Positions 5,544 through 62,208 of a stretch of 64,000 nucleotides of DNA are shown here, piece after piece. Source of the stretch: a virus. The notes beneath the pieces were generated by a model. It saw nothing but the letters and a program-made list of their open reading frames with translations, was not told the DNA's origin and made no database searches. Position 1 is the first letter of the stretch. Each line of letters starts with the position of its first letter. The stretch is taken from positions 16,999 through 80,998 of the IMG/VR virus record IMGVR_UViG_3300025121_000038. One strand, 5' to 3'. The position numbers and the translations under genes are program-made.

Positions 5544-5646
5544 ATACTCAAGGAAGGGTTCGAACCTTCAACCTAACAAGTGTATTGTTAGGTGCCTTAA
5601 TGACTAAAGCCATTAATTGATATGTTTTACAACATTTCTTGAGTAT
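5544..5646 (-). ncRNA. tRNA-like RNA with 9-bp acceptor and closed anticodon arm
   Basis: ATACTCAAG/CTTGAGTAT; T arm GAAGG-TTCGAAC-CCTTC; 8-bp variable arm. Confidence 0.55.
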
Positions 5647-5734
5647 GTATCAAGTATCAGAGACCAGGGTCAGTCCACCACTGGAACGTCTGAACTAGGA
5701 ATAGAATGAAGTCCATTTGTGTATCCTTTCTGTG

Positions 5735-5953
5735 TTAGTTGTTTAGCTTTTGAAGCTCGCTCTCAGCCCAGTTTTTGAGGCTAGTCCAGTGTCTACACTG
5801 CTCGTCCAGACTATATTCTGAAGGGCCTTCTTCAGATCCGAAAGTATCTTGGCCCAAGTTACAATGGGTCAAACTACTATTTGCAGTAGTAAGCATATGC
5901 TCAAACTCAGTACGACGACTTTCGGTAGATTCTGGTTCACGAGAGCTAAACAT
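5735..5953 (-). CDS. hypothetical protein
   Basis: ORF track. Confidence 0.6.
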   Translation of the reverse strand: MFSSREPESTESRRTEFEHMLTTANSSLTHCNLGQDTFGSEEGPSEYSLDEQCRHWTSLKNWAESELQKLNN

Positions 5954-6028
5954 GGGTTTTACCTTTTGTTAATATTGATGTATTTAGTCTTCTTGCAACA
6001 TATATACAACGATATAATCAAATCAAAA

Positions 6029-7049
6029 TTAAGAGCGTTTCTTAAGTTTTCTATAATCTAAACCGTAATCAAAAGCCCATTTTCTGATCGCATTATCTGA
6101 AACACCGTATTTTAACCCAAGTGCGGGTATAGTATTAAATTTTATATCTTGTTCGAGTACTTTTTGATGGTCTTCCACATCTTCTACGACTTTTTGAAAA
6201 ACATTCTTGAGAACATGTTTTCATAGTGGGTCTTACTTTTAAGACCTGTTTTCCACAAATACATACAAAATATATTTTAGGTTTCAAGTCAACATCTTTC
6301 TTTTCTTGAAGAGATTTTGCTTGAAAAGCATCATATATTATATCGAATTTTTCTGAACATAAATCTTGGAATTCTTCTATGTTTTGAGTATTACTCAATT
6401 GAGTAAGTTGTTTGTACCTAACAAACAAGAGTTTTATATCATTAGATGATAATATCCTTTGTAATTTGTCTAAATCATACGCGGAGAAAAATCCCTTTAC
6501 TTCTACATACAAATCATAATTAGGCAAATAAAAATCGGGAGCATATGTTTTTAATACATCGCTTGATGAAAGGTACTTTAGGTATACTTTTCTAATCCAT
6601 AATATACCTTTAGAGTTAAACCATTCTGCTACTTTTACTTCCCAGGTTCCTCTACATACATATTCTTCTCCTTGTATGTTTTTAATAGTGTACCACTTCA
6701 CATCTTTAAATCCACCTCCACCTTTTTCTTCCAAAAATTTAGATCTTGCTGCGGATATTTTCTCTTTAGCTTCTTTCGACATTATCTTTGTAGGTTGTAG
6801 TTTAGCTTTTTCTGATCTTTTAGCTTTAATAGAAGCAAGATTGGGGTTTAGAGAGCATTTTAAAGTATGTGCCCCCAACCGGACCCAGTCAAAAGATTGA
6901 TGGCAAAATTTACACGAATAAATATTCGAAAGCTGTGCTAGAAATACTTCTCTATGAATGGTTTTGGATTTTTGTGAGTGAGAATTATTATGGCCGCCTA
7001 ATTGGGCCACCGTATCAAAAGTTTTATCGCATTTTGAACATTTATACAT
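6029..7049 (-). CDS. zinc-finger PD-(D/E)XK homing-type endonuclease; C-terminal HTH out of frame
   Basis: C2H2 finger, YAPDFYLP...VEVKG; GVSDNAIRKW continues in another frame (about 6160-6029). Confidence 0.8.
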
Positions 7050-7063
7050 ACCCGTCCTAAAAT

Positions 7064-7096
7064 AAAAAAGGGCTCTGAAATGTTTCAGAGCCCTTT
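7064..7096 (-). terminator. intrinsic terminator
   Basis: AAAGGGCTCTGAAA/TTTCAGAGCCCTTT stem with minus-strand U tract. Confidence 0.8.
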
Positions 7097-7182
7097 GGTC
7101 CGAGTCGCGGGAGTTGAACCCGCATCCAACCAGTTACCTCATTATAATGGACCGCTTATAAGACGGGAAGGTTACACTCGGA
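7096..7182 (-). ncRNA. rearranged tRNA-like RNA with UAU loop and CCA
   Basis: Acceptor and T arm present; no D arm before the CCGT-CTTATAA-GCGG hairpin. Confidence 0.6.
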
Positions 7183-7225
7183 TATTAACTTTTCTAACTG
7201 CAATCTTCTGTACACTATCAAAATC

Positions 7226-7300
7226 TGGTGACCCTAGAGGGGATCGAACCCTGCGTTACCGGATTGAGAATCCAGCGTTCTACCATTAAACTATAGGGCC
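7226..7300 (-). tRNA. tRNA-Glu(CUC)
   Basis: CTGGA-TTCTCAA-TCCGG; CCA. Confidence 0.85.
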
Positions 7301-7315
7301 GTATTTATCTTACTT

Positions 7316-7347
7316 CTATATAACGTTTCTATCTTAAAAAAGTTAAG
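7316..7347 (-). promoter_or_regulatory. putative phage promoter CTWAN-N16/17-CGTTATAT
   Basis: Motif recurs at 6007, 12663, 14530, 52859 and 62937 upstream of minus-strand units. Confidence 0.5.
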
Positions 7348-7687
7348 AGAGAAAAACAAAAATTCGAGAAAAATTTGAGATCGATTGGATTTTAACCAAT
7401 ACCTCGACGATGCCCCCTCGACAACGTGCGAAACTTTTAGGGTTTCTCTAGAGGCTGTCCTGTGAATAATCACCCCGTTCGCATCCTTTTTTACATCGGC
7501 TTTTCATCTATGGATAACCTTTGTTGATTATGTTTCTACCATAGATCCGAAAACTGAGGCAGTGCCCTCTACCTGTACTCTCCACGAGCTACGATCTCAA
7601 AGGATTAAAAAATCACGGTCTCCCTTAGATTGTTATTGCCAAGTCTGGTGGCCAGCCGTGACAATCAACACGTTATATGTGGGTTTT

Positions 7688-7759
7688 TGGTAGGAGAGCA
7701 GGGAATCGGACCCTGTAAACATCCTTATAAGAGACGCGTCTGCAACCAGCAACTCTCCC
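7688..7759 (-). tRNA. compact non-canonical tRNA-Ile(UAU)
   Basis: Small D arm, 6-bp anticodon stem GCGTCT-CTTATAA-GGATGT, 3-nt variable loop, CCA. Confidence 0.65.
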
Positions 7760-7994
7760 ATTATAACTTATCTAGCTCAACATTCCTCTGGGTTCTCCTA
7801 CATACGTATCTATTATAGCGTCCACTTATACGGGATCAACTTAATAGCCCTACCTTATGTAAAAGGTGCAATACCCCTTCTCAGAGCCTTCGTTTAAACT
7901 GCACTTGGTTCTTACTCTAGCTCAATGGCTTAATCCTCCATGTACTCACTAATGTTAGAGTAACGAAAGGTCTTAGCAAAAAGTAAGAGATTTA

Positions 7995-8177
7995 TTAAAA
8001 TCCGTCAAATTCAGGTAAAGCTTTATATTTGTCTTCTTCCATTTCTTCGACATGGATAATTAATTTACTGCTTTGACATAACTCTGTTAACTCTTGAGTT
8101 ACAAATTGTCCTATTGCATCTGCACTGGTATCTATGTAACCACCTTTTTCACTGTCTAAGACTCTATATACAATCAT
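7995..8177 (-). CDS. hypothetical protein (start reassigned to MIVYRV)
   Basis: GAGG Shine-Dalgarno; the longer ORF would run through a tRNA half. Confidence 0.65.
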   Translation of the reverse strand: MIVYRVLDSEKGGYIDTSADAIGQFVTQELTELCQSSKLIIHVEEMEEDKYKALPEFDGF

Positions 8178-8198
8178 TTGTATTGCCTCTTTATGTTT

Positions 8199-8237
8199 TG
8201 GCGGTCCCAGAGAGAATCGAACTCTCGTTTTTTCACG
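8199..8237 (-). pseudogene. 3' half of split tRNA (Asp-type acceptor)
   Basis: CGTGA-AAAAC-GAGAG-TTCGATT-CTCTC-TGGGACC-G-CCA; pairs with 9153-9183. Confidence 0.85.
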
Positions 8238-8305
8238 TTTTATTAATGTTATATAACAAGCAAATTTGACTTCATTTAAAATAAATCGTACATTCATGGA
8301 TAAAC

Positions 8306-9157
8306 ATGCAAAAACAATATATTAAGAGTAGGCGTAAAGATCAAAAAAGAGAGATGCTAACCTACAAAGGTGGATCATGTCAATTATGTAATTACGCGAT
8401 ATGTGCTAGAGCAATGGATTTTCATCACAAAGACCCTACTCAAAAAGACTTCGGAATATGTGGTATGAATAAATCTTGGGAAGAAATTAAGACAGAATTA
8501 GACAAATGTATTTTAGTCTGTAAAAACTGTCACGGAGAAATACACGATGGCCTTCACGACCAATTTAAAATACTCAATGTAAAAGTGCGCTCAAACTATG
8601 CTAATAGAATATATTATTATCGAAAACAATTCAAACACAATTTAGTCCAATACGCGGGTGGGTATTGTGCTATTTGTACTTACAAAAAGAGTTACAGATG
8701 TTTATCTTTTCACCATTTGAACAAATCAACAAAAACATTTGAAATAAATGAAGCTACTCAGAAAACTTTGGAAGAGATAGCAGTAGAACTTGATAAATGT
8801 ATTTTATTATGTCTAAACTGTCACTCTGAGGTACATGACGAAATTTCTGACATAAGCGATGTTAAACCAATAAAAAATCTTGAATATCTCGATATCATAA
8901 AATCTCTCATTCAAAAAGATGAAAAACCATTAATAATAGAAAAATATTATTGTTTAGATTGTAATGTGGAAAAGAAAACATCCGCCGCAAGATGTGTTCC
9001 TTGCAGTCAAAAATACCAAGAGAAAGTGAAATGGCCAGAAATAGAAGAATTGATAGAAATGTTAAAAACAAGTAATAAAGTGTTATTGGCTAAACAACTC
9101 GGTGTTTCAGAAGCTGCTATACGGAAAAGGTTGTCAAAATATATGTTCAATACATGA
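8306..9157 (+). CDS. tandem-domain HNH endonuclease with C-terminal HTH
   Basis: Two CxxC...FHH...CxNCH units; LGVSEAAIRK. Confidence 0.9.
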   Translation: MQKQYIKSRRKDQKREMLTYKGGSCQLCNYAICARAMDFHHKDPTQKDFGICGMNKSWEEIKTELDKCILVCKNCHGEIHDGLHDQFKILNVKVRSNYANRIYYYRKQFKHNLVQYAGGYCAICTYKKSYRCLSFHHLNKSTKTFEINEATQKTLEEIAVELDKCILLCLNCHSEVHDEISDISDVKPIKNLEYLDIIKSLIQKDEKPLIIEKYYCLDCNVEKKTSAARCVPCSQKYQEKVKWPEIEELIEMLKTSNKVLLAKQLGVSEAAIRKRLSKYMFNT

Positions 9158-9183
9158 CGTACTAACCACTGTACGATGGAACC
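9153..9183 (-). pseudogene. 5' half of split tRNA
   Basis: GGTTCCA-TC-GTAC-AGTGGTTA-GTAC-G-TCATG. Confidence 0.85.
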
Positions 9184-9187
9184 CTTT

Positions 9188-10243
9188 TTAATGACAGCCA
9201 GTTTCTTTCATAGTCTTTCTAAACATAGAAACTATGCTTGAACGACATAATATTTTCACATCTTCAGGTAAGCGTTTATCTTTATTGACCCGTTTCAAAG
9301 ACTCGTCTCTACACAAAATAGCAATTCTCTGTCTCATATGATTGTCTTGTATATCCCTTATCGCAGACATACATTCAGACATATACGTAAGACAATGGGT
9401 TACTTTTTTAAATACTGCCTCCTTGTTTTCATCCATTCTATGGATAGCTTCTTTTAGTTCGGAGGTTATTAAAACATGTTCCATAATTTTCATTTTTAAA
9501 ATATCTGGTTAAACTACAAATCATCCTAAGCATTAACCTATGGAACCTTAGCTACCAGGTCAGTAGTCCACTTTTATCCCCACTAAACCATTTGCCTTGA
9601 TGAACCGTATCATGTCCCTTTATTTGGTGACATACAACCTGTTTGTTATCTTTATGTTCTTCACCACAAAGACCCAAACCTTGAGCCATTTTTGAAAAAT
9701 TGGGAGTAGGTAAATAAGGAGTCAAAGGTAAATCAGACTGGAGATATTGGTTCATTAATAAGTCCATGTCTTTAGAGGAAATCATTATTAAATATATCCG
9801 TTTTAGTTGTTAATCAAAATTATGTAACCTTAAACATCAACAACAGTATAACCGTGATCCTCTAAGATGGATGTCAATAAATTTACGTGATAATCAGAAC
9901 CTTGAAATGAGGTATTCACACAAAGGTACGAATGTAATGGCTCTAGAGTCTCTGGTAAGGCTCTAGACAAAATCTCTTGCCTTATGGCTCTAACCTCAGG
10001 ATCCAACTCTTTGAGGTCTGAGATTACTTTTTTATTCCAACATACTCTTTTCATAGCTCACCACTGAACAGAAGAAAAAACTACAACACAGGTACGTAGA
10101 AAATCTTCCCGAGCTTTACGTTCATTTGGGTCATAGCCCCACTCCGTCGCGGCTTTGTCTTTAGCCTCTTCTTCACTAAGAGCTTTTATCATCTTAGCGC
10201 CATCTTCGGTATATTCTGGGTCGTAAACAAAGTAGCAATTCAT
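9188..10243 (-). CDS. four hypothetical proteins (9188-9493, 9552-9785, 9830-10054, 10058-10243)
   Basis: ORF track, co-oriented. Confidence 0.6.
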
Positions 10244-10849: not shown

Positions 10850-11590
10850 ATGCACATAACAAAAAATTTTTCTGAAGAAGGATTTGTTAAAAATATTAAA
10901 TGTTCTGACTCGGACTTCATAATTGCTGTAAATAAAACCATAAGTATCGCAGAATTACTAAGATACTTAAACATACCTCAACATAGGGGCAGGCATTATG
11001 AGTCTGTTAAATTTAAAATAAAACAATTAAAATTAGACACATCTCATTGGGGTCCTTATGTTAAACGTAATGGTCATAAAAGAAAAGATTTAAAAGACAT
11101 TCTTACAATAGGCACTTCCATATGTCATTTAAAAAGATTATTAGATGAAAATGTCTTAAAAAATGAATGTTATGAGTGTGGCCTAATACCCTATTGGAAA
11201 GAAAAACCTCTTAAATTACAAATTGACCATATCAATGGTATAAATACAGACAATAGACTTGAAAATCTAAGACTATTGTGTCCCAATTGTCACTCTCAAA
11301 CAGACACGTTTTGTGGTAGAAATGTAACAAAACGACATAAAAAGCCAACTTGCATAGATTGCAATACACAAATAAGCAGGAAATCTTTAAGGTGTACTAT
11401 TTGTCAAGCAAAAATTAATAAAGTTACTACAAAAATTACATGGCCAGAAACAAGAGATCTTATAAAGATGATAGAAAATAGTTCTGTATTGGCCACTTCA
11501 AGAAATTTAAAGTGTTCTGATGCAGCCGTATATAAACACTTAGAATCAAGAGGGTTTGTAGTAAAAAACAAAAAAGTTTATAAAGACTGA
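10850..11590 (+). CDS. HNH endonuclease with C-terminal HTH
   Basis: LQIDHINGINTDNRLENLRLLCPNCHSQT. Confidence 0.92.
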   Translation: MHITKNFSEEGFVKNIKCSDSDFIIAVNKTISIAELLRYLNIPQHRGRHYESVKFKIKQLKLDTSHWGPYVKRNGHKRKDLKDILTIGTSICHLKRLLDENVLKNECYECGLIPYWKEKPLKLQIDHINGINTDNRLENLRLLCPNCHSQTDTFCGRNVTKRHKKPTCIDCNTQISRKSLRCTICQAKINKVTTKITWPETRDLIKMIENSSVLATSRNLKCSDAAVYKHLESRGFVVKNKKVYKD

Positions 11591-11746: not shown

Positions 11747-11820
11747 TGGCGGTCCCAAGGGGAATCGAACCCCTACAGTCTCGTAGACAGCGAGACATAC
11801 TGCCGTTATATTATGGAACC
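11747..11820 (-). tRNA. tRNA-Asp(GUC)
   Basis: Loop CTGTCTA, G73, CCA. Confidence 0.88.
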
Positions 11821-12269: not shown

Positions 12270-12343
12270 TGGCGGTCCCGAAGGGAGTCGAACCCTCAAA
12301 TCTTGATAGACAATCAAGCATTTTACCGTTAAATTACGGGACC
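12270..12343 (-). tRNA. tRNA-Asp(GUC)
   Basis: CTTGA-TTGTCTA-TCAAG; CCA. Confidence 0.9.
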
Positions 12344-12491: not shown

Positions 12492-12566
12492 TGGTGGTCT
12501 CGGAGAGGATCGAACTCTCTTCTCCAGGTTGAAAGCCAAGCGTCTTAGCCAATGGACCACGAGACC
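12492..12566 (-). tRNA. tRNA-Glu(UUC)
   Basis: Loop CTTTCAA; CCA. Confidence 0.9.
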
Positions 12567-12856: not shown

Positions 12857-13264
12857 TTATGCTATAAGATGTTTACGCATCTTATCATATTCAAGGTTTA
12901 GATACTCTATGTGTTTCTTTAGTCTTTCACAATTTTCCTCTACTAAAGAATTATAATGTCTTACACATTCTTCTTTATTGTCAAATATACATATAAATTC
13001 TGGAAATCTAGTATTATCCCACATGGGAATCTTCTTTCCAGATTTAGTTTTAATCTCTTTCAAATTTGGTTGATAAATTTGCGGCACGACAAGACATGTT
13101 ACTTCTGTAGGTTTTACATGTCTTGTCGGAGTATATTTACGTACATCAGAAAATCTATAATCACATACCCAATATGTCATACCTTCTTGAAGGGTAGTGT
13201 CTGATAAAATTTTCAAAATAATTCCTATAAATGTTGGATGGGGAGGAAGGATTTGAACCTTCAA
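12857..13264 (-). CDS. hypothetical protein (true start probably downstream of the tRNA fragment)
   Basis: ORF track. Confidence 0.6.
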   Translation of the reverse strand: MKVQILPPHPTFIGIILKILSDTTLQEGMTYWVCDYRFSDVRKYTPTRHVKPTEVTCLVVPQIYQPNLKEIKTKSGKKIPMWDNTRFPEFICIFDNKEECVRHYNSLVEENCERLKKHIEYLNLEYDKMRKHLIA

Positions 13265-13272
13265 CCTCTTGG
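13235..13272 (-). pseudogene. 3' half of split tRNA (Gln-type)
   Basis: GAAGG-TTCAAAT-CCTTC-CTCCCCA-T-CCA; pairs with TGGGGAG at 14098-14104. Confidence 0.8.
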
Positions 13273-13300
13273 TGCTGAGTCTGATGTAGTGCCACTTCTG

Positions 13301-13978
13301 CTATAATTTAAACAGATGTTTTCTTATAGCCGCCTCAGAAACCCCTAATCTTTTGGCAACCGTAGTTCTATTTGTTAATTTTATTTCTTCCAATAAATCT
13401 ATATCAGATGGCCAAATTATTTTCTTTTTCTTAGGGAGACTGTTAAAACACTTTTTGCATGTTGAAGCATTCAACGTTATTGTCTTTTGACAATGTGGAC
13501 ACTTATTACCAACAAAATCTGTCTTTTTCTTATTACGACCAGCAAAAGTAGGAGTTTGACTATGACAATTTGGACACAACAATCTTAAATTTTCTAACCT
13601 ATTGTCGGTATTAACCCCATTGATATGGTCAAGATGTAAAACCAAGGGTTCACCTTGCCAGATTGAACTTACCCCGCATTTCTCACACTTCTCTTGTATT
13701 ATATTATCTCGTATCAATTTTGTTTTCAAATCACGAGGTCTAAAGTTGGAATTGTCCCGTAATGGTTCTAATTTTAGACTTTTTCTATCATTAGGTTTCT
13801 TCAAGTCTGAAAGAGACAGGTTTTCTTCAGCCATTCTATTTTTTAATGTCTGACAATTTCCACCGGCTTGTTGCAGACCATAATGTGCTAGAATTTCAGT
13901 TAAAGTCTCACAACTTAAAACAATGTTTTTAAAATTCTCAGAAGAATCTTTCCAAATTGGACTTCGTCGTTTATTCAT
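13301..13978 (-). CDS. HNH endonuclease with C-terminal HTH
   Basis: LHLDHINGVNTDNRLENLRLLCPNCHSQT; LGVSEAAIRK. Confidence 0.92.
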   Translation of the reverse strand: MNKRRSPIWKDSSENFKNIVLSCETLTEILAHYGLQQAGGNCQTLKNRMAEENLSLSDLKKPNDRKSLKLEPLRDNSNFRPRDLKTKLIRDNIIQEKCEKCGVSSIWQGEPLVLHLDHINGVNTDNRLENLRLLCPNCHSQTPTFAGRNKKKTDFVGNKCPHCQKTITLNASTCKKCFNSLPKKKKIIWPSDIDLLEEIKLTNRTTVAKRLGVSEAAIRKHLFKL

Positions 13979-14058
13979 TGGCAGACGTGGTAGGATTCGA
14001 ACCTACATAAATGACCTGGGTTCAAAGCCCAGCGCAACGCCAATTTTGCTACACGTCT
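13979..14058 (-). tRNA. tRNA-Gln(UUG)
   Basis: CTGGG-CTTTGAA-CCCAG; CCA directly followed by the HNH ATG. Confidence 0.88.
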
Positions 14059-14089
14059 AAAACCTTTTAAAATTACTTCAAACCTGAAA

Positions 14090-14104
14090 TTGTGCTACTC
14101 CCCA
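14090..14104 (-). pseudogene. 5' stub of split tRNA
   Basis: TGGGGAG-TA-GCAC-AA. Confidence 0.6.
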
Positions 14105-15946: not shown

Positions 15947-15967
15947 GGGTGCTATGAGAGAGTTGAA
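15947..15967. repeat. 21-bp direct repeat (second copy 16652-16672), the displaced tRNA-His 3' end
   Basis: GGGTGCTATGAGAGAGTTGAA identical at both sites; this copy carries the CCA. Confidence 0.9.
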
Positions 15968-15998
15968 AACTAATTTTCTCTTTATAACTTACCCATTT

Positions 15999-16712
15999 AT
16001 GATAAAAAAATTTACATATGACCAATATAACCAAGCTAAAAGTCTAGATAATCTATTACTAGAATGTCTATTTTGTAAACAAGATTTTCTATGTACAAAA
16101 CGAAATATTAAGCATGCATTACTCAACTCAACAAAAGACAAACGAAAATTCTGTACATTAAAATGTAGCAAAGAATATTTAAAGTCACTAAACTTCATTA
16201 TTTGTTCTTATTGTAACAATAAATCACATAGACAAAAAGCTCTTATAAATGTTGGCAATAATTTTTGTACTCAATCATGTGCGGCAAAATACAATAATGC
16301 ACATAAAACAAAAGGTACTAGAAGATCCAAACTTGAACAATGGTTAGAAATAAAATTACTTGAACTTTATCCAGACTTAGAATTTCACTTCAATAAAACA
16401 GATGCTATAAATGCTGAGCTTGACATATACATACCAAGTCTTAAACTGGCTTTTGAGCTAAATGGTATCTTTCATTATGAACCAATCTATGGTCAAGATA
16501 AATTAGATAAAATTCAATCTAATGATCACAGAAAATTTCAAGCATGTATAGAACATGACATATCCCTTTGTATTATTGATACATCAAATCAACTTTATTT
16601 CAAAGAACAAACATCTAAAAAATATTTAGACATTATAACTAATATAATTGAGGGTGCTATGAGAGAGTTGAACTCTCGTATTCGGATCCACAAACCGACG
16701 TTCTACCGTTGA
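15999..16712 (+). CDS. zinc-finger PD-(D/E)XK (Vsr-like) endonuclease
   Basis: FCxxxC repeats; ELDIYIPSLKLAFELNGIFHY; frame is open from 15954. Confidence 0.85.
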   Translation: MIKKFTYDQYNQAKSLDNLLLECLFCKQDFLCTKRNIKHALLNSTKDKRKFCTLKCSKEYLKSLNFIICSYCNNKSHRQKALINVGNNFCTQSCAAKYNNAHKTKGTRRSKLEQWLEIKLLELYPDLEFHFNKTDAINAELDIYIPSLKLAFELNGIFHYEPIYGQDKLDKIQSNDHRKFQACIEHDISLCIIDTSNQLYFKEQTSKKYLDIITNIIEGAMRELNSRIRIHKPTFYR

Positions 16713-16724
16713 ACTAATAACACC
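16652..16724 (-). tRNA. tRNA-His(GUG)
   Basis: G-1:C73, loop TTGTGGA; CCA not encoded; overlaps the endonuclease 3' end. Confidence 0.88.
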
Positions 16725-16948: not shown

Positions 16949-17024
16949 TGGTGCCCCTCCCCGAATTCGAATCGGGACTTTACAGATTTTAAGTCTGTTG
17001 CCTCTGCCGTTGGGCTAGAAGGGC
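16949..17024 (-). tRNA. tRNA-Leu(UAA), short variable loop
   Basis: ACAGA-CTTAAAA-TCTGT; CCA. Confidence 0.87.
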
Positions 17025-17909: not shown

Positions 17910-18014
17910 TAGTGAGTACGGGAGGAATCGAACCTCATTGCACCCTTGCCATCTGTAGGAATCGAACCTACAATTACAGACGTCTCTGTAGTCACCTGAC
18001 TTTCATACTCACTA
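17910..18014 (-). ncRNA. tRNA-like RNA with two T arms
   Basis: 11-bp closing stem; GTAGG-TTCGATT-CCTAC and GAGG-TTCGATT-CCTC. Confidence 0.6.
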
Positions 18015-18018
18015 AAAA

Positions 18019-18192
18019 TGGTGGCGTTTAATGGATGCTACACGCCAAAGTCTAATCATGAACATTAAGGATTCGAACCTCAGTCTCTGAAGAGCGATAA
18101 AGGCCTCCGATGGCTTCGGGATTCGAACCCTCTTTATCGACTTATAACATCAGTGCTCTCCCGTTGAGCTATTTTGTTCATTTTAAAACGCC
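18019..18192 (-). ncRNA. nested tRNA-like RNA with two T loops and terminal ACCA
   Basis: Outer GGCGTTT/AAACGCC-A-CCA; inner cloverleaf with a T-loop module in its anticodon arm. Confidence 0.6.
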
Positions 18193-19001: not shown

Positions 19002-19292
19002 TCATTCAGACAAATTCTTGAACCCAGGTAAAAATCGAACCCCCACCGTCGCAACAATAGAAGGTCTCCATACCATGCCACATTTTTGACATGCATGAGT
19101 ATGATGTGCTTTTGTTTCAAACTCACCCGTATCTATATGTCTTTCGCCACATGAAGGACACCATAGCAACATCGGTATAGGCCTGGACAATACAAAGACT
19201 GCCTCTGTAAGGTCTTTTAAAGTAAACAGTACAGGGGCAGTCTTAATAGTTTCTACGCCCTCAATTATCTTGCGCAGATAGTCCTGGTTCAT
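19002..19292 (-). CDS. zinc-binding hypothetical protein
   Basis: CPSC...HHTHACQKC. Confidence 0.7.
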
Positions 19293-20482
19293 ACATTACC
19301 AATATTAGTGATCACCCCAGCCCCAATGGTACGACTACCTTCTCTAACCGCGAAGCGAGAGTTCACCTCAAAGCCAGCTGGTTTATTCAGTTCAACCTTG
19401 ATAGTAGTACGGTCACCTGGGTTGACACACTCTAACCCTTCTGGAAGAGTGATTACCCCAGTAACATCTGTAGTACCGAAATAGAATTGAGGTCTATACC
19501 CACTCTTGAATGGTTTCTCACGACCCCCTTCTTTTGCGGTCAAGGTATAAAACTCAGCCTCGAATTTTGCATTGCTTCTAATAGACCCAGGAGCGGCCAA
19601 AACTTGACCTCTCCGTATCTCGTCTCTCTTAACCCCACGGAGCAACATACCGATGTTCATACCAGCAAGACCTTCCGGTACATCTTTACGGAACATCTGG
19701 ACTCCTGTAACGACTACCTTTCTGGGTTTGCCACCCTCGTCTTCGGTAAGACCTACTATCTCAACCTCGTCTCCGATCTTGACCTTACCACGGTCAATAC
19801 GGCCTGTAGCTACCGTACCACGCCCAGATATTGTAACAACGTCTTCTACCGACATTCGGAACGGAGAGTCCATATCTCTAACAGGCTCTGGAATAGTATT
19901 GTCCAAAGCATCCATCAATTCTGGGATGGATCCGATCCAAGGGCTAGTCCAGTCTCCTGCATTAGCCGCTTCAAGAGCCTTAAGAGCGGATCCTCTCACG
20001 AACTTGACATCAGTATACCCATAGCTCTCGAGGATTTCGTTTGCTTCCATTTCTACGAGAGACAAGAGCTCTTCGTCTTCACAACGATCAACTTTGTTCA
20101 CGAAAACAACGATATGCTTTACCCCTACTTGAGATGCAAGCAATACGTGTTCCTTGGTTTGGGGCTCAGGTCCTTGAGATCCATCGACCAAAAGTATAGC
20201 ACCGTCCATCTGAGCAGCACCCGTGATCATGTTCTTGATGTAGTCAGCATGTCCTGGACAGTCAATATGTGCATAATGTCTGTTCTTTGTTACATACTCT
20301 ACGTGAGCGGTATTGATTGTAATACCACGAGCTTTTTCTTCAGGAGCTTTATCTATTTGATCATAGTTAAGGGCTTGCCCACCATGTTCTTTAGCCTGTA
20401 TCTTTGTGATAGCTGCCGTAAGAGTGGTTTTACCATGGTCGATGTGACCTATACTTCCGACTGTTAACATTACTCTACCCAT
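19289..20482 (-). CDS. tuf: elongation factor Tu with atypical (replacement) N-terminus
   Basis: [26 protein letters not shown]; GGAG before ATG at 20482. Confidence 0.96.
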
Positions 20483-20583
20483 CTTTTTCTCCAAATTTAA
20501 TTTACCACAGAACAACTAACGGATAATAACAATATTCCTTTTATGAAGTACTTCATCGAACCTAAAATTCATGGAGACTTCAT

Positions 20584-21501
20584 TTGCCAAATAACATTTC
20601 TACACGCACTAGGATTTGTCCAAATTGTCAAAACTCATATCTCTTAAATGTGACTATTGACGGAGAACGAATAGCCCTCCACAAACGTAAATATTGCTTA
20701 GATTGTTCTCCTTTTATCAAAGGTAGCAACAAAATAAGTAACCGAAAGACCTTAGAAAAACACAACAAGTCTGAATCTTTTTGCAAAGAATGTAACTCAA
20801 TAAAACCTATAGATCAATTCTATTTTAGGCACAGTGGACTACCCTTGTCTATCTGTAAAAAATGTCATCACGAAGAATCTAAACAACAAACTAAATCTTA
20901 TAAGGAGCAGGCAGTCGCTTATAAAGGCGGATCCTGCGAGCTTTGTAATTATAGCAAATGTTTAGATGCAATGGACTTTCATCACAAAGACCCTACTCAA
21001 AAAGATTTCACTTTTAGTAGAAGATTTCCATGTTTCAAAACAGCTAAACCAGAACTCGATAAATGTATGCTCTTATGTGCCAACTGTCACCGCGAAGAAC
21101 ATCAGCGTATGGCAGACATAGATTTTAAAAATTCTGACCACGGGCAGCTTGACCCATTAGGCCATAGATGTCGTAGATGCAACCTACATAAAACTATAAA
21201 TTCTTTCCCTATAGATAAAGGAATACCAAAACCTTGGTGTAAGTCATGTACTCGTTTATATGGTAGACAAGGTAGAGCAAAAATCAAACAAGAAATTATC
21301 TCCTATAAAGGAGGGGTTTGTGAAATATGCTCCTATAACAAAAACATTGCTGCATTAGATTTACATCACAAAGACCCAACTCAAAAATCTTTTGGCATTG
21401 CCGAAATGAGAGATAAATATCTCTCTGAAATCAAAGATGAGGTAGATAAGTGCATTTTAACCTGTGTAAACTGCCATAGAGAACAACACGTTAAACCTTA
21501 A
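20584..21501 (+). CDS. tandem-domain HNH endonuclease
   Basis: Two YKGGxCExC...HHKDPTQK...CxNCHRE units; related to 8306-9157. Confidence 0.9.
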   Translation: MPNNISTRTRICPNCQNSYLLNVTIDGERIALHKRKYCLDCSPFIKGSNKISNRKTLEKHNKSESFCKECNSIKPIDQFYFRHSGLPLSICKKCHHEESKQQTKSYKEQAVAYKGGSCELCNYSKCLDAMDFHHKDPTQKDFTFSRRFPCFKTAKPELDKCMLLCANCHREEHQRMADIDFKNSDHGQLDPLGHRCRRCNLHKTINSFPIDKGIPKPWCKSCTRLYGRQGRAKIKQEIISYKGGVCEICSYNKNIAALDLHHKDPTQKSFGIAEMRDKYLSEIKDEVDKCILTCVNCHREQHVKP

Positions 21502-33150: not shown

Positions 33151-33846
33151 TTATCCTCTTAATAAGTCTAATTTCCCATCTTCCCAATCTTGTAGTCTAA
33201 TCTTTTTATCAGTCCTATGATCAAATACAAAACCATCTTGATACCTTATGGTTCTAATTTTATCCCCACGCATTCCAGAACCTACTTGACTCTGTCGATG
33301 TTGAGATATTTCTGATTTATTCTTCGATTCCATTTCTTCATGTATTCTTGATCTAAGAACAGATAATGCCATCTTTTTATTGGCATTTTGAGACTTAGAA
33401 GCAGAGTATGCTGTAATCTTTGTTGGCACATGAGTTATACGTACCGCAGAGTCTGTAGTATTCCTATGTTGTCCACCTGGACCTGATCCTCTCATAGTTT
33501 CATATATAAGATCCGAAGGTTTTATTTGCAAATCAAAGTCTGTAGGCTCTTTCAATACAGCTACTGTGACGGTAGAAGATTGTCTTCTACCTTTCTTTTC
33601 AGTAGGAGGAACTCTCTGTACTCTGTGCCCTCCAGCCTCGTTTACTAAAAGATTATAAACATCTCTACCAGTTACCATAAACGATATCTCATGGTAACCT
33701 TTAGAGGCTTCTTTCATTTCCAATATTTCAGTATCCCATTTATGGATAGAACAATATCGGACTAACACTTTAAACATATCATAGACAAATAATTTTGCAT
33801 CATCTCCACCTTCGGCGGATCTGATTTCTATAATGACGGTATCCAT
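33151..33846 (-). CDS. prfA: class I release factor, RF1-type, lacking the N-terminal domain
   Basis: HRVQRVPPTE (PxT), GPGGQ, IRT; 231 aa. Confidence 0.88.
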   Translation of the reverse strand: MDTVIIEIRSAEGGDDAKLFVYDMFKVLVRYCSIHKWDTEILEMKEASKGYHEISFMVTGRDVYNLLVNEAGGHRVQRVPPTEKKGRRQSSTVTVAVLKEPTDFDLQIKPSDLIYETMRGSGPGGQHRNTTDSAVRITHVPTKITAYSASKSQNANKKMALSVLRSRIHEEMESKNKSEISQHRQSQVGSGMRGDKIRTIRYQDGFVFDHRTDKKIRLQDWEDGKLDLLRG

Positions 33847-45628: not shown

Positions 45629-45704
45629 AGGTGCCCCTGGTGGGTTTTGATCCCACTGCCTTGGTATTTAAAGTACCTCGCTCTTCCAATTGAGCTACAG
45701 GGAC
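45629..45704 (-). tRNA. putative ochre suppressor tRNA (UUA)
   Basis: Full cloverleaf; GGTA-CTTTAAA-TACC; ends A-CCT. Confidence 0.7.
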
Positions 45705-49162: not shown

Positions 49163-49747
49163 TTATTCCTTTCCGGGGATATAATCGAGAAGGTTGTTTA
49201 AGTGTACCCAGAGAGACTCCAAAGGAGTGTGAGGTACGTAGAGGGTCTGATAAAACTCTGTCTGCTCTTTTTTGTACATGTCCAGCTTGTGTCCGCCCTT
49301 CGTAAACTTTTCTGAAGCGACTACGCTAGCTTCCATGTTGGCGATACGGTCACAAAGCTTAACCAAGGTAGCACCTGGTGTAATAGGGATCAAGCGATAA
49401 GGTCCAGGTACCGCATCCGTACCCCAATGTCGCAATTTCCTGTTAGCCCCTTCGATCTTCGCATCCGAAACCGCAAATACGATAGAGGCAACTACAGTCC
49501 CAAAAAGGGCCTCAATCATAGCTCTGGTAGCGGGAGTGTCCTCAATGGTGTCATGCAGCCAAAGTGCAATGACCAAGATCTCCCTGGTAAGTCCATAAAA
49601 AGCTACCATCTCATCCGTCACACGGCGACGATATACATCTTGCACCTTCTCAAGGTGGTACTCATACGGAAAATCTCCGTACATCTGGTTACCGTGGCAG
49701 GCAAGGGCAAAACGTTTTGCGGTTAGGATTCGTTGAAGCGTGCTCAT
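49163..49747 (-). CDS. HD hydrolase, small alarmone hydrolase (Mesh1/SpoT-HD)-like
   Basis: FA..CHGNQ...PYEYHL...LHDTIEDT...VKLCDRIAN. Confidence 0.85.
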   Translation of the reverse strand: MSTLQRILTAKRFALACHGNQMYGDFPYEYHLEKVQDVYRRRVTDEMVAFYGLTREILVIALWLHDTIEDTPATRAMIEALFGTVVASIVFAVSDAKIEGANRKLRHWGTDAVPGPYRLIPITPGATLVKLCDRIANMEASVVASEKFTKGGHKLDMYKKEQTEFYQTLYVPHTPLESLWVHLNNLLDYIPGKE

Positions 49748-49796
49748 ATGATTCCTTTCGTTGTGTGTCTATTTAACGAAAGGAATTAGATGAATA

Positions 49797-50279
49797 TCAG
49801 AGAGAATTTCGAAGAATTGTTAAACATTGGTCTAAATGGTCTGGGGTAAGTCCTCCAAGATAATGTGTCTTTAAGAAATGAGGTAGTTGCTCATCTAACA
49901 TATCGTCACTATCATCAAGAATAAGATAAGTGGTAGTCCTGTTATGATCATCTCTCCATTTTTTAATCTCATCTCCACGTATCTTACCGTAGGTAGGGGT
50001 CCTGTCCACTATCCTATGTGTATGTGTAAGACCTCCTTGAGTACTAAACCCACGTCGTATTTCTTCTAAGGTATGTATCTTACGCCAAGCAGAAGAAATG
50101 ATAAGATTAGCAGGACATTGGTCCAAAATCTGTTGTAGTATTGCTACATTACCTGGGTCGAACCCATACAGCTTGGAGCTTTCTACAGGCCACCGTTCGA
50201 CGGTAAGCCAATGTTTATTGAACACCCCGTCTATGTCTACAAAAATGTCAGGAAGAGACGGGTCTAGCACATAATTCAA
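49797..50279 (-). CDS. HAD-family phosphatase (RNA-repair-associated type)
   Basis: DIDGV, ISSAWR, RGDEI, ILDD. Confidence 0.82.
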   Translation of the reverse strand: MNYVLDPSLPDIFVDIDGVFNKHWLTVERWPVESSKLYGFDPGNVAILQQILDQCPANLIISSAWRKIHTLEEIRRGFSTQGGLTHTHRIVDRTPTYGKIRGDEIKKWRDDHNRTTTYLILDDSDDMLDEQLPHFLKTHYLGGLTPDHLDQCLTILRNSL

Positions 50280-50357
50280 AATAATCCCTCAGTCTTTAAT
50301 TTTCTGTAAGTCTATTATTGAAAAACGTAAATACTATTGAAATATTTAGAGGAAAGG

Positions 50358-50981
50358 TCAACTAAGACGTGTAAACATAGCTTCTGCTTCTTGCTCGTTT
50401 CTGGATGTAGTCTTACATCGATCTCTTAAAGTTTGATACCAAGCATTACTTTTAATCTTAAACATGTCTGGGCCATGTTTACCTTTACCCTTACATACCA
50501 CACCTTCAAAAGCCATTCCTTCTAAAGTTCCATCTTTAATCTGTCTAATCAAATCTTCATTGATAGGCCCTTGGTATAAACACGGGGCATGATCTATATA
50601 CCTACACCAGTCTAAAAACTCATTTGGTAAAAGAATACCCCTCTTATGGACATGTATGTCAATAAGAGTTACGGTATGTGGCTCGTCATAATGTACACCA
50701 AAGGCTGACGTAGGTCCATAAAACTCAAAAAATGCTGTAGCTTCATCTACTCTCTTGGACCTGAAAATTTCATCAAGTTGGTCTCCGTAAAGACTTAGTA
50801 TGAGATCCTTAGCTTGACTCAGGTAGGGAGTTTGGTCATCTAAGAGACCATTACGTTTTCCAAATTTATAGAAACTTCTCTTTCGATTCCACTGAGCCCT
50901 ACAATTCGACCCATCGAATTTTGGAAATACATAATAGTGACCAGACCTAATCTGGGCATCTATACTGGGGTACTGTATCAT
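50358..50981 (-). CDS. RNA-ligase-like nucleotidyltransferase
   Basis: KFDGSN, EFYG, EGVV, FKIK. Confidence 0.75.
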   Translation of the reverse strand: MIQYPSIDAQIRSGHYYVFPKFDGSNCRAQWNRKRSFYKFGKRNGLLDDQTPYLSQAKDLILSLYGDQLDEIFRSKRVDEATAFFEFYGPTSAFGVHYDEPHTVTLIDIHVHKRGILLPNEFLDWCRYIDHAPCLYQGPINEDLIRQIKDGTLEGMAFEGVVCKGKGKHGPDMFKIKSNAWYQTLRDRCKTTSRNEQEAEAMFTRLS

Positions 50982-51809
50982 ACATTCTTTCTAAAGCTTC
51001 TAAACGAGACTCAATATTGTCATATACTAGCTCTAAACGATCTAGCTCTTTATTGACTTCTAAAAGGGATAAATCTATAGCATCAAACTCTCTATGCATT
51101 TTATTAAGTCTCAAAATTTCTGGAATAGGTAAAAAGCTCACAATCAAATGTCTGAAACAATCATAAACCACCCTCACAATCATTTGATAACCAATGACAC
51201 TAGAAATGTCTAGCTGCCATACCCTTACTCTATTGGATTGAACCTCAACTAGATATTTGCCGGGTCTGTTCTTTTTGATTATATTACAGATCCGGATATA
51301 CTCTTCATCCGTAAGCAATCTATCGTGTCGTTCTAGGAACCTACGTTTCGCATGAGCTACAATAGCGTTTGTTTTGGAGTTTCTAGATCCGAATTTTTTC
51401 TTGATGGTTCTCATTTAAGATATTGTTCTTTGTATGTTTTCATGCACATGATCTCATCATATGTCAAAAGGTCTGCTTCCAGAAAACCTTTCTTATTATA
51501 TTCAAACAACTCCTCCCAAACACCAGCTTCTTTAAGATATTGACATGATTCCTTTATTACCGGATGTATAGGACCATCTTTATGTTTCCTCTGCAACGTC
51601 ACATATGTTGCAGAGTTAGATGCAAATATAAGCCTTACTGTCCATGGCGGTCTTAACTCAATTTCTTTAGGATAGGGGCTTGCATACCCTGTTTTAGCCC
51701 AACGAGCTTTCCAACCCTTTTTAAGGAAAAGCAAATGCTCACATTGAGCTTCTCTTCTCCACAAATCTTGGTATTGATTAAAAAACTCATTCAGCCATTT
51801 ATATTCCAT
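50947..51809 (-). CDS. two hypothetical proteins (50947-51414, 51411-51809)
   Basis: ORF track. Confidence 0.65.
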
Positions 51810-52325: not shown

Positions 52326-52426
52326 TTGTTGCCCCAGTGGGATTCGAACCCACACCCTCGTCGGATAAAGACGCCATACTAACCAAGAAGACGCCATAAG
52401 CGTCTTTATTTATACTATAGGACAAC
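52326..52426 (-). ncRNA. tRNA-like RNA with extra hairpin in the D loop
   Basis: T arm GTGGG-TTCGAAT-CCCAC; AAGACGC-TTATG-GCGTCTT inserted in the D loop; anticodon loop TTTATCC. Confidence 0.55.
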
Positions 52427-52704: not shown

Positions 52705-52805
52705 GTAAAAACATAAGTAGGAGTTGAACCTACACAAAGCTTAGTATTACTACCTCGCATCACCCAGGCACTGGGCTGCCCTCCCATTAGGCTATTATGT
52801 TTTAC
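52705..52805 (-). ncRNA. tRNA-like RNA with 12-bp acceptor and no anticodon loop
   Basis: GTAAAAACATAA/TTATGTTTTTAC; D and T arms intact. Confidence 0.55.
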
Positions 52806-56116: not shown

Positions 56117-56262
56117 TCTCTGTACAAGTTTAAAGAGCTGTGTCTTTTTAAGACAGCTTTATGGCTGTTGCCTTTTCCAGTTAGGCTACTTCCCCAAATT
56201 TTAGTGGGGAAGGAAGGATTCGAACCTCCATATTTGTGTATGCTCTAGGTGTAGTACAGAGA
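56117..56262 (-). ncRNA. Y-RNA-like RNA carrying a circularly permuted tRNA
   Basis: Closing stem TCTCTGTAC/GTACAGAGA; order is T arm, closed acceptor, D arm. Confidence 0.65.
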
Positions 56263-61203: not shown

Positions 61204-61965
61204 ATGTTTAAATTTCAAGAAATAATTAAAAATCCAGAATTAATCAAAAACTATACTTACACTCAAGACGTTCCTTTAATATGCGAAGCTTGTAAAGCAA
61301 CCTTCTTAAGGAACAAGTTGGACCTTACAATAAAAATCAAAAAAGGCAGGAAAAAGTCCTATTGTTCTAAACAATGTAGTTATACATCCACAAGAAAAAC
61401 AGAAGAAATAAAATGTACTAATTGTCAAAAAGCTATCTTTCGACTTTCTTCACACATCGGTACAAACAATTTTTGTGGCCATACTTGTTCGGCAATTTTC
61501 AACAATACAGGCAGAAAAACCAAAAAATATGTAGCCCCTTTAACACATTGTTTATTTTGCAACAAGAGTTTATTTTCTTCAGAAAATAAACTCTTCAAAA
61601 CTGGAAAGAAATACTGTAATCATAAATGCCATCATGCATTTGTGCGTCAACAAAAAATAGAAAAATGGCTTTCTAATGAAAATGTAGAGGCTACGCCCCA
61701 TGGGAGTTTACCAAATCATATTTACAATTACATACGAAATTTTTATGAAAATAAATGTTCTAGATGTGGTTGGAATGAAATAAATGAGCAAACGAAAAAA
61801 TCACCCCTAAATATACATCATATAGACGGTAATTATAGAAATAACAGATTTGACAATTTGGAGTTATTGTGCCCAAATTGTCACTCACTGACACATAATT
61901 ATGGAAGTTTAAATAAAGGTAAAGGAAGAGAATTTAGGTACAAAAAAGCTCTCACCGGGACTTGA
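61204..61965 (+). CDS. zinc-finger HNH endonuclease
   Basis: LNIHHIDGNYRNNRFDNLELLCPNCHSLT. Confidence 0.92.
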   Translation: MFKFQEIIKNPELIKNYTYTQDVPLICEACKATFLRNKLDLTIKIKKGRKKSYCSKQCSYTSTRKTEEIKCTNCQKAIFRLSSHIGTNNFCGHTCSAIFNNTGRKTKKYVAPLTHCLFCNKSLFSSENKLFKTGKKYCNHKCHHAFVRQQKIEKWLSNENVEATPHGSLPNHIYNYIRNFYENKCSRCGWNEINEQTKKSPLNIHHIDGNYRNNRFDNLELLCPNCHSLTHNYGSLNKGKGREFRYKKALTGT

Positions 61966-62017
61966 ACCCAGAATTTCACCATACCAAGATGATGTTTTAC
62001 CTTTAAACTATAAGAGC
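61947..62017 (-). tRNA. tRNA-Thr(GGU)
   Basis: TCATC-TTGGTAT-GGTGA; no CCA; overlaps the HNH 3' end. Confidence 0.88.
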
Positions 62018-62044: not shown

Positions 62045-62128
62045 ATTTATGAGTGTAAGGTCCGAATCGAACGGACGCTCTCCAGAATATTCCAAACTGA
62101 ATATGACTGTACACGCTTGCTCGTGTAC

Positions 62129-62208
62129 TATCTATGAATAGAGGATTTGAACCTCTGACCTCCAGATTGGGGTCCGGCACTCTACCAGACTGAGCTAATT
62201 CATAGATA
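62129..62208 (-). ncRNA. tRNA-like RNA, 11-bp acceptor, 6-nt anticodon loop
   Basis: CCGGA-CCCCAA-TCTGG; canonical D and T arms; no CCA. Confidence 0.6.

Follow-up and report, generated by a model that had tools for sequence, protein, structure and literature searches.

An antisense HNH endonuclease gene in the anticodon loop of a viral tRNA gene, probably an inactivating insertion

Group I introns in the anticodon loops of bacterial tRNAs are well known, and the one in the cyanobacterial tRNA-fMet gene reportedly carries the endonuclease I-Ssp6803I. In archaea, tRNA genes can be split or contain introns, with splicing at bulge-helix-bulge motifs, as illustrated by the split tRNAs of Nanoarchaeum. 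In phage T4, according to the account given of SegB (PMC2330249), this GIY-YIG enzyme is the product of a free-standing homing endonuclease gene (HEG) within the tRNA cluster; it recognises a conserved element of tRNA genes, cuts inside them and spreads by gene conversion in mixed infections, thereby driving its own inheritance. The same account cites the HNH enzymes F-TflI/II/IV as free-standing homing endonucleases of the tRNA region of phage T5 (as cited in PMC2330249). Here we describe a 64,000-nt stretch of viral DNA (positions 16,999 to 80,998 of IMG/VR virus record IMGVR_UViG_3300025121_000038; hereafter the window), in which the anticodon loop of a tRNA gene at positions 8199–9183 has been replaced by an antisense gene encoding a protein with two HNH units. 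We consider it probable that a free-standing HEG invaded a redundant tRNA gene, inserted in inverted orientation in its anticodon loop and inactivated the tRNA.

The locus shares features with each of these systems without matching any of them. As with SegB, a stand-alone, intron-less endonuclease gene lies in a phage tRNA array. However, segB is located between tRNA genes and leaves them whole, whereas the gene described here sits inside the anticodon loop of a tRNA in antisense orientation and relies on that tRNA for its stop codon. The protein is also a tandem HNH, unlike the SegB family, and its cleavage and homing activities are proposed by analogy. The position in the anticodon loop and the homing-type endonuclease are both shared with the group I introns of bacterial tRNAs (that of tRNA-fMet with I-Ssp6803I, and one in a tRNA-Thr gene at the viral locus L067 described below), but in this case there is no ribozyme core, the group I splice rule is not obeyed, and an antisense open reading frame (ORF) fills the insert. 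As with archaeal split tRNAs, the halves lie apart in the DNA and their stems could unite them. By contrast with those genes, there is no bulge-helix-bulge and there are no complementary leader sequences, and the phage has bacterial-type traits, namely encoded CCA ends, an RF1/RF2-type release factor and EF-Tu. Phage tRNA clusters are known to harbour free-standing endonuclease genes, and what is particular here is the antisense orientation together with the lack of a replacement tRNA. No description of an intron-less endonuclease gene inside a phage tRNA gene was found in the literature (open-access papers and bioRxiv).

Read on the minus strand, positions 9183–9153 are GGTTCCA-TC-GTAC-AGTGGTTA-GTAC-G-TCATG and positions 8237–8199 are CGTGA-AAAAAC-GAGAG-TTCGATT-CTCTC-TGGGACC-G-CCA. 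The acceptor stem is paired at 7/7 positions (GGTTCCA, 9183–9177, with TGGGACC, 8209–8203) and is followed at the 3' end by a discriminator G and an encoded CCA (8202–8199). The D arm (GTAC/AGTGGTTA/GTAC) lies wholly within the 5' half and the T arm (GAGAG-TTCGATT-CTCTC, 8226–8210) wholly within the 3' half, and both are canonical. In the anticodon stem, TCATG (9157–9153) pairs with CGTGA (8237–8233) at 5/5 positions, one of them a T.G pair, or at 6/6 positions if the adjoining T-A pair is counted. The variable region is AAAAAC (6 nt), and the conserved bases U8, A14, the D-loop GG, G26, T54-T55-C56, A58 and G53-C61 are all present in the halves. What remains of the loop is TATTG in the 5' half and AAAA in the 3' half, the two strands of the anticodon stem being separated by 915 nt (8238–9152); because A and T bases repeat on both sides, the insert junction can slide by ~3 nt. 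These data bear out a sequence-only reading of the locus, which had described a tRNA with acceptor stem, D arm, anticodon stem and T arm intact around a replaced loop of 915 nt from stem to stem, occupied by a double-HNH gene in antisense with its TGA stop in the anticodon stem.

The 42 tRNAs that ARAGORN identified in the window with default settings all lie on the minus strand, and the locus 8199–9183 is not among them. When introns were allowed, it called the split tRNA with a 906-nt insert and a clean 79-nt cloverleaf. Such a call is by itself weak evidence here, because at least one long-intron call was also obtained in 26/30 shuffles of the contig as 40-nt blocks, a procedure that scatters the tRNA halves (mononucleotide shuffles of the contig gave such calls in 1/30). 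The other long-intron call in the contig itself (window 5545–6432) had mismatched stems and was rejected as spurious. The pairing between the two halves constitutes stronger evidence, and shows that they belong together. Using the number of acceptor and anticodon-stem pairs as a score (maximum 12), which is 12 for the split tRNA, non-cognate combinations of 5' and 3' halves from the contig's 43 tRNAs reached 12 in only 2 of 1806 cases and at least 11 in 8 of 1806, while 30 of the 43 cognate combinations scored 12. Neither half of the split tRNA forms part of another tRNA. In addition, both junctions are covered by contigs from three samples of two studies (X2 record 1 spans the whole stretch, X5 record 6 spans 7000–9258, and X6 records 16 and 18 each include a single junction), some of which may be the source of the record and which are hence not fully independent. 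The split tRNA is not an assembly artefact. An apparent joint between 7293 and 8209 in X7 derives from the tRNA of another organism (one side of 22 nt, high depth) and was disregarded.

Table 1 Positions of the split tRNA, its insert and related features in the window.
Feature	Position	Strand	Basis
tRNA 5' half	9148..9183	minus	sequence read directly; ARAGORN structure
tRNA 3' half	8199..8241	minus	sequence read directly; ARAGORN structure
Insert as delimited by ARAGORN, 906 nt	8242..9147	not assigned	
Intact double-HNH homing-endonuclease gene, 283 aa	8306..9157	plus	ORF; PHROG profile match
Sigma-70-like promoter candidate, TTGACT-17 nt-TACATT	8266..8294	plus	9/12 positions match
Intact tRNA-Asp(GTC), likely paralogue	11747..11820	minus	ARAGORN, half comparison
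Second intact tRNA-Asp(GTC)	12270..12343	minus	ARAGORN

The HNH ORF takes up the insert except for ~60 nt and runs antisense to the tRNA. Bases 1–3 of the anticodon-stem strand TCATG, read as their complement, supply its TGA stop (9155–9157), and the last 3–4 codons are likewise taken from the strand opposite the tRNA anticodon stem-loop. Alignment of the protein with its relatives extends to about ...RKRLSKY, so that the final MFNT and the stop come from the tRNA; such a C-terminal read-out into the flank would be expected of a gene that landed there. In the predicted protein, two tandem C-x2-C...FHH...C-x2-C-H-x3-H units are accompanied by a Cys4 ribbon and, at the C terminus, a helix-turn-helix, and the residues that are invariant in the family (C25, C28, H40, H41, C72, C75, H76 and H80) are all present. 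It matches PHROG 2255 'HNH endonuclease' at an E-value of 6.8e-40, and PHROG 3106 and 35854, also 'HNH endonuclease', at ~1e-36 (to 4e-36), each over two matched stretches. The generic Pfam HNH match is weak (E 0.097), and HTH_50 is matched at E 0.0019. The GC content of the gene is 31.5%, compared with 38.5% for the window and 28–36% for the contig's other endonuclease genes.

Within the 60 nt that separate the HNH ATG from the tRNA 3' half lies the promoter-like sequence listed in Table 1, which is a candidate only, promoter-like sites in the region not being enriched (12 versus 8.1 ± 2.8 in shuffles). Just upstream of it on the plus strand (8210–8239), the complement of the T arm followed by TTTTTT, which derives from the A-run of the variable loop, resembles an intrinsic terminator. 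The C-terminal part of the protein is common to two single-HNH genes of the same contig, at 10850–11590 and 13301–13978. Its closest relative in the same genome is a double-HNH paralogue at 20584–21501 (53% identity over residues 6–85, 45% overall) and, like the gene in the tRNA, this paralogue is on the plus strand among minus-strand genes and stands beside a translation gene, in its case that for EF-Tu.

In line with what had been noted from the sequence, no replacement tRNA was found in 8242–9147 by ARAGORN (default settings and 80% threshold) or Rfam, and a search of the insert for T-arm motifs returned none beyond that of the 3' half itself, save one weak match within the ORF. A tRNA-Asn called in the insert only at a 70% ARAGORN threshold was rejected, its stems being mismatched. 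The two intact tRNA-Asp(GTC) genes that had been reported nearby were recovered by ARAGORN. One of them, 2.5 kb from the split tRNA (the likely paralogue in Table 1), has the same acceptor stem and discriminator as the split tRNA, from which it differs in the similar anticodon stem (TCTCG/CGAGA) by one compensatory and one one-sided change. The 3' half of the split tRNA is about equally similar to the tRNA-Glu(UUC) gene at 12492, and GTC is absent from the remaining loop. Since the anticodon cannot be read, it is only the acceptor stem and discriminator that point to redundancy with tRNA-Asp.

The tRNA was then healed in silico, by scoring 360 junctions with ARAGORN. Nine of the 11 best-scoring healed forms remove exactly 906 nt, and the best forms were accepted at a threshold of 110%, not at 115%. 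Removal of 906 nt with a 6-bp stem gives ATA, TTA or TGA as anticodon, all equally good, and removal of 908 nt gives TTG or TAA at slightly lower stringency. If the stem has 5 bp and the loop 7 nt, an unusual A invariably occupies position 33, and U33 requires the 6-bp stem. At 79 nt, with 6 nt in the variable loop and an anticodon arm that has a 9-nt loop or else a 6-bp stem, the healed tRNA is thus not of the textbook kind; either the original tRNA was odd, like several in the array, or a few bases were added or lost at insertion. The tRNA-Gln(UUG) gene that precedes HNH relatives at four viral loci (L006–L009) was considered as an orthologue of the split tRNA and rejected, since the sequences are unrelated.

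An Rfam 15 search of 1.6 kb around the locus (7900–9500; both strands, E ≤ 10, lax filters) returned no group I, group II or other intron family, in keeping with the sequence-only reading, in which no group I core had been recognised. The scan gave four chance-level matches, the best of which was to a microRNA at 18.2 bits. As a positive control, the same library detected a group I intron (RF00028, 76.6 bits) inside the tRNA-Thr of locus L067, which shows that the test works on such DNA. The 985-nt precursor is not unusually structured (fold z-score −1.24; 2 of 20 shuffles fold as well), and its minimum-energy fold contains only six acceptor pairs and no cloverleaf. Furthermore, no loop-restoring junction obeys the group I splice rule, under which the 5' exon ends in U and the intron in G. 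When 906 nt are removed, a 5' exon ending in U (9150 or 9149) is possible, with A (8244 or 8243) as the last intron base; a G is available nearby solely at 8236, inside the anticodon stem, and the matching 5' exon would end in A. Nor is there a bulge-helix-bulge (two 3-nt bulges, 4-bp helix) at the junctions. In the minimum-energy fold the 5' junction pairs with 8305–8327 and not with the 3' junction; by inspection, an A/U helix, set off from the stem by an 8 × 12 internal loop, is all that the junctions could form. A degenerate inverted copy of the 5' half at the start of the HNH gene, hinted at by the minimum-energy fold, was also considered and dropped, its local alignment score of 16 being equalled by 520 of 2000 shuffles.

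A large protein collection contained 727 relatives of the insert protein at E ≤ 1e-10, none with more than 45% identity. To place the gene among them, we surveyed 86 viral loci, comprising 6 with the protein and 80 more with a family alignment. The HNH gene lies between intact tRNAs of the same strand in five of the first six loci, and at least one tRNA is found within 1.5 kb of it in 72 of the other 80; of the tRNAs there, 353 share the strand of the HNH gene and 39 do not. The family thus consists of free-standing endonucleases living in phage tRNA arrays. A split tRNA spanning the HNH gene was called by ARAGORN in three of the 80 loci (L021, L036 and L045). The L021 call, like an 'intron' call in L011, had weak D arms or a tRNA half inside an ORF, and neither was counted as an example. 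The remaining two loci are convincing and carry the same element on two contigs (L045:1206–1791 = L036:110–695), in which a 512-nt insert after position 33 separates the halves of a clean tRNA-Ile(UAU) whose stems pair at 7/7 and 5/5 positions. In L045, this insert contains an odd, D-arm-poor tRNA (1253–1330; anticodon UAU, Rfam tRNA 29.1 bits) followed by an HNH ORF on the same strand (1306–1749). Members of the HNH family therefore do enter tRNA anticodon loops.

The L036/L045 cassette resembles the locus described here in its HNH family (51–53% identity, HNH core), in its position in the anticodon loop and in the pairing of the halves at 7/7 and 5/5 positions, and both are without a group I match at the Rfam gathering score. 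It differs in that its HNH gene is on the tRNA strand and is accompanied by a replacement tRNA with the same anticodon, whereas here the gene is antisense and there is no replacement. None of the 86 other family loci has an antisense HNH gene within a split tRNA, and this arrangement therefore does not look like a conserved design. At L067, in a 436-kb viral contig, the tRNA-Thr(UGU) gene (1158–1459) contains the group I intron (RF00028, 1180–1410), and a free-standing HNH gene of the same family (1501–1977) lies directly downstream. Matches at the Rfam gathering level were also seen to tmRNA (L040:1002–1285, 61.5 bits) and, in a 543-kb contig, to tRNA-Sec (L016:1003–1088, 50.6 bits).

Relatives of the locus itself were sought in several ways. 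Viral contigs scanned for exact matches to 26 nt of the 5' half and to 28 nt of the 3' half contained neither. The protein encoded upstream (9191–9493) had no relative in viral contigs and one weak match in metagenome contigs (L012, 42% over 36 aa), where there was no tRNA. A BLAST search of phage records with 7900–9500 gave matches in 12 records, confined to an HNH core of 134 nt with ~71% identity. No insert-less form of the tRNA was seen in contigs from four DNA runs, contigs being apt to drop rare variants.

Taken together, the locus works like an insertion and not like an intron. If a HEG did invade the tRNA gene, as we think probable, the enzyme would, by analogy with SegB, act on co-infecting relatives in which this tRNA gene is uninterrupted, cutting around its anticodon stem-loop; repair of the break would then copy the HEG in, and the insertion would destroy the enzyme's own site. 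The interrupted tRNA copy is most likely dead and would not be matured into a decoding tRNA; the perfect pairing of its halves would be due not to selection for function but to the insertion being young and to its flanks having been copied in the course of homing. The phage presumably tolerates the loss, because it has more than 40 tRNA genes, including two for tRNA-Asp, one of them with the same acceptor stem. The sequence-only reading had proposed either a recent insertion or a processed split tRNA. Between the two, insertion is favoured by the absence of a ribozyme, the ordinary fold, the ~60 nt that the ORF leaves free and the array-dwelling habit of the HNH family, while the processed split tRNA found no positive support; that the insertion is recent is something we infer, no relative having been found in which decay could be measured.

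Several points weigh against insertion and loss of the tRNA. No HEG-less allele or close relative of the locus was found in phage records or in viral and metagenome contigs, and both homing and the age of the insertion are matters that we infer. Both halves are flawless, though a streamlined phage might be expected to delete dead DNA, and several other tRNA-like remnants of the contig do look decayed. The anticodon is not readable from what is left of the loop. Finally, the nuclease domain of the insert protein is intact, with its activity and target predicted from family membership.

The state of the halves could be accounted for differently if the tRNA were dead as a decoder and its halves were kept as processing signals of the RNase P/RNase Z type, or as a stabilising scaffold around antisense HNH RNA. 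The tRNA-strand transcript necessarily holds a full antisense copy of the HNH mRNA, which would damp expression of the endonuclease during transcription of the tRNA operon. The intact halves also abut the flanking genes, since the 5' half begins 5 nt past the stop of ORF 9188–9493 and the 3' half ends 24 nt ahead of an ATG at 8174 that has an AAGAGG ribosome-binding site. We nevertheless regard this explanation as unlikely: the minimum-energy fold, with its few acceptor pairs, does not favour closure of the acceptor and anticodon stems over a distance of 906 nt, and the other family loci do not have the arrangement. A very improbable alternative is that the tRNA is still made, with a protein nuclease cutting on both sides of the insert, the stems holding the halves and phage RNA ligase or repair functions sealing them. 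The cut could be made, for example, by an anticodon nuclease, or by RNase III if the tRNA-strand transcript were to form a duplex with the antisense HNH mRNA. Such rejoining would explain the flawless halves, in which 12/12 stem pairs and all tertiary-contact bases are kept, and the antisense arrangement would yield the long sense/antisense duplex. The RNA-ligase-like gene that had been pointed out in the window was confirmed (PF09414 at 50361–50981, E 6.4e-8). It belongs to an RNA-repair module (49166–51414) consisting of an HD-domain gene, a HAD_SAK_2 domain (49800–50279, E 4.5e-22), the ligase and a small ORF, with a phosphoesterase gene also nearby. However, there is no positive evidence for rejoining. 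Repair modules are usual in large phages, and this one adjoins tRNA-Arg and tRNA-Cys, 41 kb from the split tRNA; the junctions show neither a bulge-helix-bulge nor another defined cleavage motif, the arrangement is not conserved (0/86), and the healed product, at 79 nt, is non-canonical.

More doubtful still is that the insert is a self-splicing intron, with a ribozyme lying across the antisense coding sequence and having diverged beyond what the Rfam models can recognise. L067 does show that a tRNA anticodon loop can contain a group I intron beside an HNH gene of this family. Against this stand the lack of any intron family in the Rfam search even at E ≤ 10, the unremarkable fold, the ~60 nt that are free of ORF and the junctions that break the splice rule; in addition, a review describes all phage group I introns known by 2014 as residing in protein genes (PMC3984707). 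We give almost no credence to a chance juxtaposition of unrelated tRNA fragments or to a chimeric assembly. The frequency of long-intron calls in block shuffles, the spurious second call in the real contig and the presence of other tRNA-like fragments would be compatible with it, but 12/12 pairing is very rare among non-cognate halves, neither half is found in another tRNA, and contigs from three samples span the junctions.

The window is part of an 81-kb record with an estimated completeness of 35%, the DNA of which is present in groundwater metagenome runs, with no RNA run listed among them, and judging from its sequence it looks like a fragment of a huge phage. ARAGORN identified 43 tRNAs in the whole contig. 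Pfam matches in the window include EF-Tu (19292–20515), an RF1/RF2-type release factor, a deoxynucleoside kinase, a giant protein with a PARP domain and T4 gp30.3. The release-factor gene (33151–33846) encodes 231 aa with PCRF and RF-1 domains. A tRNA with the anticodon UUA, which would read the UAA stop, is located at 45630–45704, and a tRNA at 62131–62205 was called with a two-base 'anticodon'. The stop codons of 36 long ORFs comprise 15 TGA, 13 TAA and 8 TAG; since TAA still ends 13 of the 36, no recoding is evident in this part of the genome.

The surroundings of the locus fit the HEG reading. At least six further endonuclease-type genes are located among the contig's tRNAs, several of them on the plus strand, and most plus-strand genes in this minus-strand region are of the endonuclease type. 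Two such plus-strand ORFs end inside minus-strand tRNA genes that remain intact: one at 15954–16712 overlaps tRNA-His (16652–16723) by 61 nt, and one at 61204–61965 overlaps tRNA-Thr(GGU) (61947–62017) by 19 nt. On the minus strand, the start codon of the HNH gene at 13301–13978 abuts the 3' end of tRNA-Gln(UUG) (13979–14058), and the same order is found in L006–L009. Close to this pair, a tRNA-like 3' piece occurs in 13235–13300 (T arm at 13246–13262, then CTCCCCA-T-CCA), and 860 nt upstream of it lies the acceptor complement TGGGGAG (14098–14104), followed by TA-GCAC. The stretch 13235–14104 may perhaps be another tRNA split by a tRNA+HNH cassette; its middle does not fold convincingly. Further tRNA-like elements with a T arm that ARAGORN does not call by default were seen at 7096–7168, 17912–18082, 52330–52401, 52708–52802, 56213–56260 and 62051–62128. 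Among these, 17955–18082 contains two tandem T-arm motifs, and at 56213 a T arm precedes an acceptor-like hairpin formed by CTTCCCCA, a loop and TGGGGAAG. These uncalled elements could be decayed or non-canonical tRNAs.

Were the tRNA to be rejoined after all, the locus would represent ribozyme-free, ligase-dependent tRNA splicing, and the first protein-dependent tRNA splicing in a bacterial virus. If instead the locus is an insertion of a free-standing HEG, which we regard as probable, it would be one more HEG footprint in the tRNA arrays of huge phages, which serve as landing sites, and the landing would have occurred inside a tRNA without the usual intron or spare, suggesting that such phages can afford the loss of single tRNAs. 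For the tandem-HNH family, which is uncharacterised and occurs in hundreds of phage tRNA arrays, the locus moreover points to the anticodon stem-loop of a tRNA gene as a defined candidate target.

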